1,761 nt of DNA. It comes from Escherichia coli (GTDB lineage Bacteria; Pseudomonadota; Gammaproteobacteria; Enterobacterales; Enterobacteriaceae). Shown piece after piece: positions 205-615 of the stretch. Position 1 is the stretch's first letter, and each line of letters starts with the position of its first letter. Both the position numbers and the translations under genes were made by a program. The notes beneath the pieces were generated by a model. It searched no databases. It was not told the origin of the DNA and was given only the letters and a program-made list of their open reading frames with translations. The stretch lies in NCBI RefSeq assembly GCF_003334315.1, contig NZ_QOWR01000113.1; one strand, 5' to 3'.

Positions 205-615
205 GATGTTTGGCATGATGATTCATATGGAACATCATCAATTGATATTACTGGCAGTGGAGATCTAATATCATTAGGTGGTCATGCAGGACTTGGCGTT
301 GCGTTTGCTAAAAAGAAAGGTGAAATGTTATCTGATATTTGTATTTATGCTACAGCATGCGGACATGCAGGAATTGGTGGTGGGATAAATGCGGCTATCA
401 CATATTCTGAGACCAAGTCTTTACCTACATCGGGAGTCAGCAATTCAGTAGGTGTAACGGTTGGAGGCGGAGTTGGGGGGCATTTTGCGTATACTTATGT
501 AGTGGATGTTGATAATCCAGAATCATCGACAGAATCTGTTGGTATCGGTGCAGGTGTTGACGCTTCAGTTATGACTCTGGCTTGTAGAACGTGGCAAGAA
601 TGCTGGGTCAATTAA
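205..615 (+). pseudogene. 5'-truncated C-terminal domain of a polymorphic toxin (most likely Rhs-CT), glycine-zipper rich; upstream part replaced by IS1
   Basis: Frame 1 is open from the IS1 junction (205) to TAA at 613-615. The first ATG is at 325 and has only a weak, badly spaced SD, so the frame appears to continue from a larger upstream gene. Translation DVWHDDSYGTSSIDITGSGDLISLGGHAGLGVAFAKKKGEMLSDICIYATACGHAGIGGGINAAITYSETKSLPTSGVSNSVGVTVGGGVGGHFAYTYVVDVDNPESSTESVGIGAGVDASVMTLACRTWQECWVN. A small putative immunity gene follows 11 nt downstream and an H-repeat element lies further on, the classical Rhs arrangement. The Rhs core motif itself is not in the window. Confidence 0.5.

Follow-up and report, generated by a model that had tools for sequence, protein, structure and literature searches.

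A relic of the Escherichia coli RhsE toxin tip and its lipoprotein partner, and the predicted Vap-like β-barrel fold of the intact tip

An IS1-truncated rhsE copy beside a frameshifted immunity gene

The stretch of DNA analysed here (the window) comprises 1,761 nucleotides (nt) of contig NZ_QOWR01000113.1 from Escherichia coli assembly GCF_003334315.1. It is the distal part of an E. coli RhsE element, and its positions 205-615 are what remains of the toxin tip of RhsE, which is a VgrG-linked Rhs effector of a type VI secretion system (T6SS). Megablast against 5,426 complete E. coli genomes identified ~1,255 in which a region matched at least 80% of the window. These regions carry annotations for 'RHS element core protein', for 'RHS element protein dsORF-e4', for ydcC (an ISAs1-like ISEc5 transposase) and for the insertion sequence IS1. 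In strain CP53 the uninterrupted locus has the order vgrG, a 1402-aa Rhs protein, two small open reading frames (ORFs), an IS1 remnant, ydcC and pptA, and in strain AH65 the small ORFs are fused into a single 131-aa 'dsORF-e4'. A three-way alignment revealed that from nt 205 onwards the window is the same as the CP53 and AH65 loci save for one silent base. This base, at position 465 in codon Gly95 (GGA in the window, GGC in CP53 and AH65), is the sole difference in the toxin remnant. The remnant likewise matches positions 6001-6411 of locus L001 save for one silent base; an intact 1402-aa 'RHS element core protein', with vgrG upstream, terminates there.

IS1 is inserted 8 codons past the DPLGL boundary of the Rhs core, and the rhsE remnant in the window lacks a start codon, an Rhs core and a DPxGL cleavage site. 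The adjacent dsORF-e4 gene has a ribosome-binding site (AGGAGG, 617-622), an ATG at 627, a signal peptide and a lipobox (MKKYIFLVLFLLCG immediately before the cysteine), and suffers a -1 frameshift in an A7 run at 793-799 (A8 in AH65) that leads to a stop at 810-812. Because IS1 has taken the upstream part of the toxin gene and the immunity gene is frameshifted, the window copy of this pair is a non-functional relic, and genome annotation should record it as dead. An earlier first-pass annotation, made from the sequence without database searches, had treated the toxin gene as functional, which does not hold for this 5'-truncated pseudogene and its frameshifted lipoprotein gene. The coordinates of the features are collected in Table 1.

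That the remnant carries only one silent change suggests that the IS1 insertion was recent. A junction-specific search found the IS1/rhsE junction (nt 204/205) in none of the 5,426 complete genomes, pointing to a strain or a Shigella-like, IS1-rich lineage outside the collection, or to a recent insertion. The apparent full-length matches H1-H6 were rejected as instances of the same junction, as they join a different nearby IS1.

Table 1. Features of the window, with the toxin remnant and its segments first.
Feature	Position	Strand	Comment
rhsE 3' remnant, last 136 codons and stop (residues D9-N144 of the 144-aa toxin domain)	205-615	+	
Glycine cluster 1, GGHAGLGVAFA	277-309	+	Predicted strand β2, just past the β1-β2 turn; exactly as in the first-pass annotation
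Glycine cluster 2, GHAGIGGGINAA	361-396	+	Middle of the long predicted strand 52-78; first placed at about 358-396
Glycine cluster 3, GVTVGGGVGGHFA	451-489	+	Predicted end of β5, β5-β6 turn and start of β6; first placed at about 448-489
Glycine cluster 4, GIGAGVDA	541-564	+	Upper part of the long predicted strand 116-142, nearing the β7-β8 crossover; first placed at 538-564
C-terminal segment with C...C, LACRTWQECWVN	577-612	+	Stop at 613-615
Lipoprotein immunity gene (dsORF-e4), 5' piece	627-812	+	Alignment with the intact 131-aa AH65 allele
Lipoprotein immunity gene (dsORF-e4), 3' piece	812-1021	+	Separate 69-codon ORF
IS1 end, insA side	1-204	-	IS1-family transposase annotations beneath the query in thousands of genomes
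IS1 terminal inverted repeat, ...GTTGGCAGCATCACC	190-204		
Second IS1 transposase gene remnant	1043-1141	-	Coordinates transferred (window = L001 - 5796)
ydcC 5' part, ISAs1-like (ISEc5 / H-repeat) transposase closing the RhsE element; leaves the window	1469-1761	+	Annotation and ORF

The domain is the variable tip of an Rhs protein

In the intact 1402-aa protein, the NCBIfam model RHS_core (2768 bits) spans residues 1-1258 and stops there, so that residues 1259-1402 (144 aa) form the variable toxin tip. Intact alleles read NPIIRMDPLGL followed at once by YNLYQ, i.e. the tip begins directly after an Rhs core that ends in the PxxxxDPxGL autocleavage motif. DUF6531 and RHS repeats were found in the N-terminal part of the protein, a PAAR motif was not significant (E 0.27), and vgrG lies directly upstream in four loci (L001, L002, L003 and L013). 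The first-pass proposal of a toxin domain was therefore sound, the domain being the variable C-terminal tip of an Rhs protein. Taken together, the tip module is a conventional Rhs toxin/immunity pair from a long-known E. coli locus, the RhsE element (rhsE - dsORF-e4 - ydcC), with the same succession of vgrG, Rhs core ending in DPLGL, 144-aa tip, small gene and H-repeat transposase. Compared with known Rhs tips, the RhsE tip carries neither a family name nor an assigned activity, and the copy in the window is set apart by its IS1 truncation and broken immunity gene.

The tip family occurs at ~1,250 RhsE loci of complete E. coli genomes, among them that of the enterohaemorrhagic strain EDL933, whose RhsE has been proposed to end in a surface adhesin or S-layer-like module rather than an antibacterial toxin. 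Threading of the EDL933 RhsE C-terminus onto RsaA and PfbA gave TM-scores of 0.65-0.71 (PMC7216683), which speaks for such a module. The domain nevertheless sits exactly at the Rhs toxin position, after DPxGL, and a small cognate gene always follows it, and we find the adhesin proposal barely credible.

A divergent family of Rhs C-termini with no enzyme signature

Sequence searches of the tip domain against Pfam, NCBIfam (E <= 1) and the PDB (queried by single sequence and by profile) gave no match, and no Pfam-A family was matched even at E <= 10, either by the tip domain or by any of 12 family members. PDB profile matches to a FOXO3 linker, a reductase and TIM (E 0.06-0.8) were dismissed as glycine-rich noise. 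When 1.84 billion representative proteins were searched exhaustively with a profile, only 24 relatives emerged, consisting of near-identical enterobacterial sequences and divergent members at 25-47% identity, two of which are from Pseudomonas. These homologues are Rhs C-termini of Enterobacteriaceae, Pseudomonas and metagenomes: wherever upstream sequence is retained, the domain is C-terminal on an Rhs protein and lies past DPxGL, and the remaining relatives are N-terminally truncated fragments. P0020, P0023, P0026 and P0027 (the 'YdcD family') were excluded as frameshifted or mis-assembled. A word-indexed homologue search with the diverse profile was swamped by glycine-rich words and, among the matches listed, returned close relatives only. 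A search for related loci with the Pseudomonas-type clade returned two species genomes, both already represented, and the taxonomic range is poorly sampled.

An alignment of 12 sequences revealed invariant or nearly invariant glycines and cysteines together with Tyr56, Lys44, Pro82 and acidic residues at positions 22, 52 and 109. The three histidines within the glycine clusters are not conserved in this alignment, and neither is any catalytic-type residue set. The first-pass annotation had recognised no catalytic nuclease or deaminase signature, and this is upheld by the Pfam, NCBIfam and PDB sequence searches, which matched no nuclease, deaminase or other enzyme family.

The Pseudomonas-type members P0039, P0042 and P0043 have an extra ~40-50 residues (e.g. 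...QRASLGMYMMQQGASQQEISNALYGPP...) between DPxGL and the predicted barrel described below, a distance of only ~13 residues in the enterobacterial tips. This extra segment could be a pre-toxin or entry linker.

The glycine clusters have the periodicity of β-strands

From the sequence, four glycine-rich clusters and a terminal C...C had been picked out and taken for Gly-x3-Gly helix-packing motifs of a membrane-inserting toxin akin to glycine-rich microcins. Translation of the remnant in frame 1 (...SLGGHAGLGVAFAKKKGEMLSDICIYATACGHAGIGGGINAAITYSETKSLPTSGVSNSVGVTVGGGVGGHFAYTYVVDVDNPESSTESVGIGAGVDASVMTLACRTWQECWVN, then the stop codon) confirmed that all of these elements are present, at positions right to within one codon. 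Glycine makes up 16% of the 144-aa domain, and its clustering is conserved in the homologues. Relative to composition-matched shuffles, [GAS]xxx[GAS] is enriched (27 versus 16.7, P = 0.0002), strict GxxxG is not (6 versus 3.4, P = 0.10), and the sole occurrence of GxxxGxxxG is within chance. GxG is enriched (8 versus 3.5, P = 0.007), and pairs of glycines are over-represented at a spacing of 2 (P = 0.018) and not at a spacing of 4 (P = 0.16). The best 19-residue Kyte-Doolittle window of the domain scores 1.06, far under transmembrane-helix values. Averaged over the family, the hydrophobic moment is highest at 170-180 degrees (0.88, versus 0.67 at 100 degrees), and family-wide columns alternate between large hydrophobic residues and Gly/Ala/Ser/Thr. 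The glycine clustering is real, and its periodicity is that of a β-strand and not of a helical zipper.

Structure prediction, which the first-pass annotation had proposed as a check, gave a consistent picture. Using six close sequences, AlphaFold predicted an all-β barrel with a mean predicted local distance difference test (pLDDT) score of 68.5 and, upstream of the barrel, a single short helix at residues 3-12. An alignment of 12 diverse sequences raised the pLDDT to 80.3 (five models, 75-80), and the prediction comprised eight strands and no helix. The barrel itself is thus free of helix in both models.

Could helical glycine-zipper segments nonetheless make a pore or ionophore by inserting into the inner membrane, in the manner of glycine-rich microcins, Tse4 or Tse5? 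The high Gly/Ala/Ser content, the enrichment of [GAS]xxx[GAS] and the lack of an enzyme signature are all compatible with this, and Tse5 is a precedent for an Rhs-borne pore-former. However, the only helix in either model lies outside the barrel, and the spacing of the glycines, the composition-level count of GxxxG, the hydrophobic moment and the low hydropathy all argue against it. The likeness to microcins found no backing either, as no glycine-zipper, microcin or bacteriocin family was matched in Pfam at E <= 10 or in NCBIfam at E <= 1. Furthermore, Tse5-CT has predicted transmembrane helices and an immunity protein with two transmembrane segments, unlike the RhsE tip system. By the refuting condition set in the first-pass annotation, the helical version of the toxin fails for want of predicted membrane-interacting segments; it is largely refuted, and we regard it as very improbable. 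The broader idea of a membrane-active toxin survives as our leading hypothesis, in the β-barrel form set out below.

Four conserved cysteines suggest two cross-strand disulfides

C54 (340-342) and C60 (358-360) lie on predicted strand β3, and C135 (583-585) and C141 (601-603) on predicted strand β8. The terminal C...C noticed at first is thus real and conserved, but it is only half of a conserved set of four that includes C54 and C60. All 12 aligned sequences have C54, and 10 of them have C60, the exceptions being P0039 and the fragment P0036. P0039 lacks both C60 and C135 and keeps the other two cysteines. Since the equal spacing of the two pairs fits an antiparallel register, and since P0039 has lost C60 and C135 together, we infer disulfides C54-C141 and C60-C135. 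The terminal pair would then most likely bond with C54 and C60 and not with itself. Local C54-C60 and C135-C141 loops were rejected, as residues i and i+6 of a strand should be too distant to bond. Zinc binding by the four cysteines is less likely, given the exported partner described below and the C-x5-C spacing inside predicted strands. The spacing and co-loss of the cysteines provide support for adjacency of β3 and β8 that is independent of the structure prediction; this adjacency is found in the Vap topology and not in a next-neighbour barrel.

The predicted barrel resembles the Vap fold

A Foldseek search of AFDB50 gave 89 matches at E <= 1e-3, mostly Rhs C-termini with identities down to 14-29%, which suggests that the structural family is much wider than the sequence family. 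The AFDB50 neighbours also included AlphaFold models of Ysc84/SYLF and FYVE-SYLF proteins (TM 0.75-0.85, E about 2e-5). The best structural match of the tip was VapB of Rhodococcus equi. Both the β-structure and the fold match come directly from the prediction tools, and they portray the intact tip as a small, Vap-like β-barrel, which two disulfides would staple.

The Vap barrel is compact and elliptical, with two Greek keys and the strand order 4-1-2-3-8-5-6-7; turns 1-2 and 5-6 are at the top, turns 2-3 and 6-7 at the base, and crossovers 3-4 and 7-8 close the top (PMC4518536). The Vap papers describe many in-strand glycines that allow close packing and a markedly uneven surface with an apolar top and a polar base, and the VapB and VapG structure papers (2014-2015) called the topology unique and unseen elsewhere at that time. 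As modelled, the tip would resemble R. equi VapA, VapB, VapD and VapG (PDB 4cv7, 5aeo) in its eight-stranded barrel, in the β3-β8 adjacency that its cysteines also imply, in its unusually numerous in-strand glycines and in its uneven polar and apolar ends. In a Vap-type barrel (topology from PMC4518536), the region of glycine cluster 2 would be the β3-β4 crossover. The four clusters together would occupy the upper halves of strands 2, 3/4, 5/6 and 7 as well as the adjoining connections, and the conserved charged residues K44-K46, E48, D52, K79, D109 and D111 would lie in the base loops with the termini.

The tip and the Vap proteins also differ. There is no detectable sequence relationship between them, and the Vap helix between β4 and β5 is absent from the tip. 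The tip family has four conserved cysteines, whereas the VapG paper never mentions disulphides (0 occurrences). Vaps are actinobacterial proteins, secreted by Sec, that target host phagosomes and lack an immunity partner. The SYLF proteins (DUF500/Ysc84; BefA, BPSL1445) share with the tip a glycine-rich, compact β domain, but the tip has no Pfam SYLF match, and the barrel described for SYLF is partial and flanked by helices. In the literature searched, we found no paper linking the Vap fold to polymorphic toxins.

The barrel might alternatively be a true transmembrane channel, acting as a monomer or an oligomer, with its hydrophobic face towards lipid and Gly/Ser/Thr/Ala lining a narrow lumen. 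Strands of ~13 residues and the strict alternation of V/I/L/F/Y with G/A/S/T are in keeping with this. However, the Vaps, which are soluble and have a hydrophobic core, score far higher and align ~20 more residues, and a charged residue at position 22 would lie mid-strand. To our knowledge, bacterial membrane β-barrels are all next-neighbour barrels and need the β-barrel assembly machinery (BAM) to insert; such barrels lack the β3-β8 adjacency that the cysteine pattern needs. We consider a transmembrane barrel improbable.

The same predicted fold also ends a ShlA/HecA/FhaA-type large exoprotein, an 'adhesin' and an annotated phage tail tape measure protein (AFDB50 accessions A0A226WXH1, A0A2N7W9P6 and A0A356B892). 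The barrel may hence be carried by delivery systems beyond T6SS-Rhs.

The partner is an exported lipoprotein, pointing to the periplasm

The first-pass annotation had read the neighbouring gene as encoding a periplasm-facing lipoprotein. The partner is indeed exported, with a signal peptide and a lipobox, and a homologous lipoprotein adjoins the tip on its 3' side in six of the seven loci examined (from Escherichia, Pseudomonas and metagenomes). The six partners are 124-159 aa long, have a signal peptide, a lipobox cysteine and no further hydrophobic segment, and are 18-41% identical to dsORF-e4. Pfam matches of dsORF-e4 were weak, to DUF3887 (E 0.003) and DUF4019 (E 0.0035). Precomputed DUF4019 matches were unmarked for the L006 partner and weak for those of L004 and L005, and the partner family profile gave a weak match (E 0.008) to a PBP3 structure, in its N-terminal region. 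DUF4019 was mentioned in the literature searched in a context unrelated to immunity function.

In E. coli, the residue following the lipidated cysteine (the +2 rule) sets anchoring to the inner or the outer membrane. An aspartate directly after this cysteine was found in none of the partner lipoproteins. By the +2 rule, dsORF-e4 should therefore face the periplasm from the outer membrane, to which it is probably anchored, as judged from its sequence. The location of a T6SS immunity protein usually marks the site of action of its effector (PMC12669606). Because the partner is exported and four cysteines are conserved in the toxin, the best reading is that the tip acts in the periplasm of the target cell, as the first-pass annotation had suggested. 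In this respect it would stand apart from known Rhs tips: a recent survey predicts an almost exclusively cytoplasmic site of action for Rhs effectors.

The locus of P0039, the most divergent member and the one that has lost a cysteine pair, is different. The next gene encodes an unrelated 181-aa protein (L010:713-1258) and is followed by a PAAR-motif gene. The C-terminal region of this protein is strongly hydrophobic (19-residue Kyte-Doolittle score 2.89) and reads as two transmembrane helices. This protein may replace the lipoprotein as an immunity protein embedded in the membrane, and that would be a hint that the toxin targets a membrane.

The frameshifted A7 allele of the immunity gene is common, with about half of the top 25 matches annotated as two 'hypothetical proteins' instead of dsORF-e4, and EDL933 has been reported with a 61-aa piece of the immunity protein. 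Immunity gene coordinates are L001:6423-6817, L002:6423-6818, L003:4423-4818 and L013:5423-5818. An inverse pattern was seen in the four genomes that were opened: rhsE is intact and the immunity gene broken in CP53, and the immunity gene is intact and rhsE broken in AH65, 2017.01.04CC and STEC276. With n = 4 this could be chance; it could also come from homopolymer sequencing error or from phase variation, or indicate that immunity can be dispensed with where the toxin never reaches the periplasm of its own producer.

A membrane-perturbing barrel as a tentative mechanism

In view of the lack of conserved catalytic residues and of the amphipathic character of the predicted barrel, we tentatively favour, with somewhat less than even confidence, a non-enzymatic, membrane-perturbing barrel that acts from the periplasm and is intercepted by the lipoprotein. 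In such a scheme, the tip would be delivered by the T6SS, released from the Rhs shell and folded in the periplasm of the target cell, where the two cross-strand disulfides C54-C141 and C60-C135 would staple it. Its glycine-rich end would then bind the phospholipid membrane and, without catalysis, cause a leak of protons or ions. In sibling cells, the periplasmic lipoprotein dsORF-e4 (DUF4019/DUF3887-like) would shield the membrane by binding the barrel before it makes contact.

Membrane activity is proposed by analogy, because the structural neighbours with known function, VapA and SYLF, permeabilise membranes. VapA binds to liposomes, makes them permeable and collapses proton gradients; phosphatidic acid enhances the effect, and the mechanism seems unlike that of classical pores (PMC10100859). 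The SYLF protein BefA binds lipids and permeabilises both liposomes and bacterial membranes. By prediction, the tip would resemble the T6SS pore-formers Tse5-CT, Ssp4, Ssp6 and Tse4 as a non-enzymatic antibacterial effector that collapses the membrane potential. Ssp4 is toxic only from the periplasm and Tse5-CT from either compartment, and Tse5 sets a precedent for delivery of a membrane-active tip by an Rhs shell. The resemblance does not extend to structure. Tse5-CT and Ssp4 have predicted transmembrane or amphipathic helices, and their partners Tsi5 and Sip4 are integral inner-membrane proteins, whereas the RhsE tip is predicted to be all-β, is devoid of a hydrophobic helix and has as its partner a lipoprotein that, in six of seven loci, has no transmembrane segment after its signal peptide.

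Several points weigh against this mechanism or the fold on which it builds. T6SS pore-formers such as Tse5 and Ssp4 are helical, and the proteins that neutralise them are integral to the inner membrane (for Ssp4, PMC12669606); a partner that is a soluble lipoprotein is seen more typically with periplasmic enzymes. The best structural match, VapB, has only weak membrane activity, being a far weaker permeabiliser than VapA (PMC10100859), and the fold does not guarantee the activity. The link to the Vaps is at the level of the fold and comes from predicted models: hhalign against six Vap proteins of plasmid pVAPA1037 gave a probability of 0.5%, and in both models a 6-residue loop (K79-S84, by DSSP) takes the place of the Vap helix between β4 and β5. 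The better AlphaFold model was built from only 12 aligned sequences, and the strand order, the disulfide geometry and the side of the strands that faces inwards are all deduced from such models. Lastly, the covariation of the cysteines depends on one sequence, and P0036 lacks C60 only.

We also weighed a tip that acts in the periplasm without disrupting the membrane, being either an unrecognised enzyme or a tight binder that sequesters an envelope component. Peptidoglycan or lipid-linked precursors, lipoprotein or lipopolysaccharide transport, or a periplasmic protein could be its target. In this case the barrel would be a scaffold for binding, with its binding surface blocked by the lipoprotein. 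Soluble lipoprotein or periplasmic immunity is usual for periplasmic T6SS enzymes, whereas pore-formers have membrane-embedded immunity, and the authors of the VapB structure, which they likened to avidin, themselves proposed a binding function. The poor permeabilising activity of VapB fits as well, and the conserved polar residues D22, K44, D52, Y56, D109 and N112-P113 cluster at the predicted base of the barrel, where they could form a site. On the other hand, no enzyme family or solved enzyme was matched by sequence, no Ser/His/Cys/Glu-type catalytic set is conserved and the cysteines behave as structural pairs. The Vap papers stress crossovers that close the barrel, with no cavity or groove, and membranes are what both structural neighbour families of known function act upon. 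An enzyme or binder of this kind is the main rival but appears somewhat unlikely to us.

Significance of a Vap-like Rhs tip

What is new here is that the RhsE tip defines an unnamed family, probably periplasmic, with a predicted fold so far known only from actinobacterial virulence proteins. As modelled, it is structurally unlike every characterised T6SS membrane toxin. A bolder proposal, which we hold to be doubtful, is that this Rhs tip family is the first antibacterial, Gram-negative member of the Vap fold: a disulfide-stapled, non-enzymatic barrel that would collapse the proton motive force from the periplasm by a VapA-like, lipid-perturbing, non-pore mechanism and be intercepted by a dedicated lipoprotein. 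If true, a β-barrel class would be added to the so far all-helical T6SS membrane toxins, and the R. equi Vap virulence factors would appear either to descend from an interbacterial toxin module or to have converged on one. It would also provide a genetically tractable E. coli model, with a natural protein inhibitor, for the membrane leak caused by small glycine-rich barrels such as VapA, whose mechanism is poorly understood. Should the membrane-leak reading of the tip fail, the family would still be a clean candidate for a new periplasmic toxin activity, and Rhs tips are a large reservoir of unexplored toxins.

Flanking features of the window

Downstream of the immunity gene, an 'IS1 family transposase, incomplete' is annotated in L001, L002 and L003 at the position equivalent to the second IS1 remnant of Table 1. 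Between this old IS1 fragment and ydcC, positions 1142-1468 (~330 bp) are apparently non-coding, with short ORFs on both strands, and are conserved in the RhsE loci examined.

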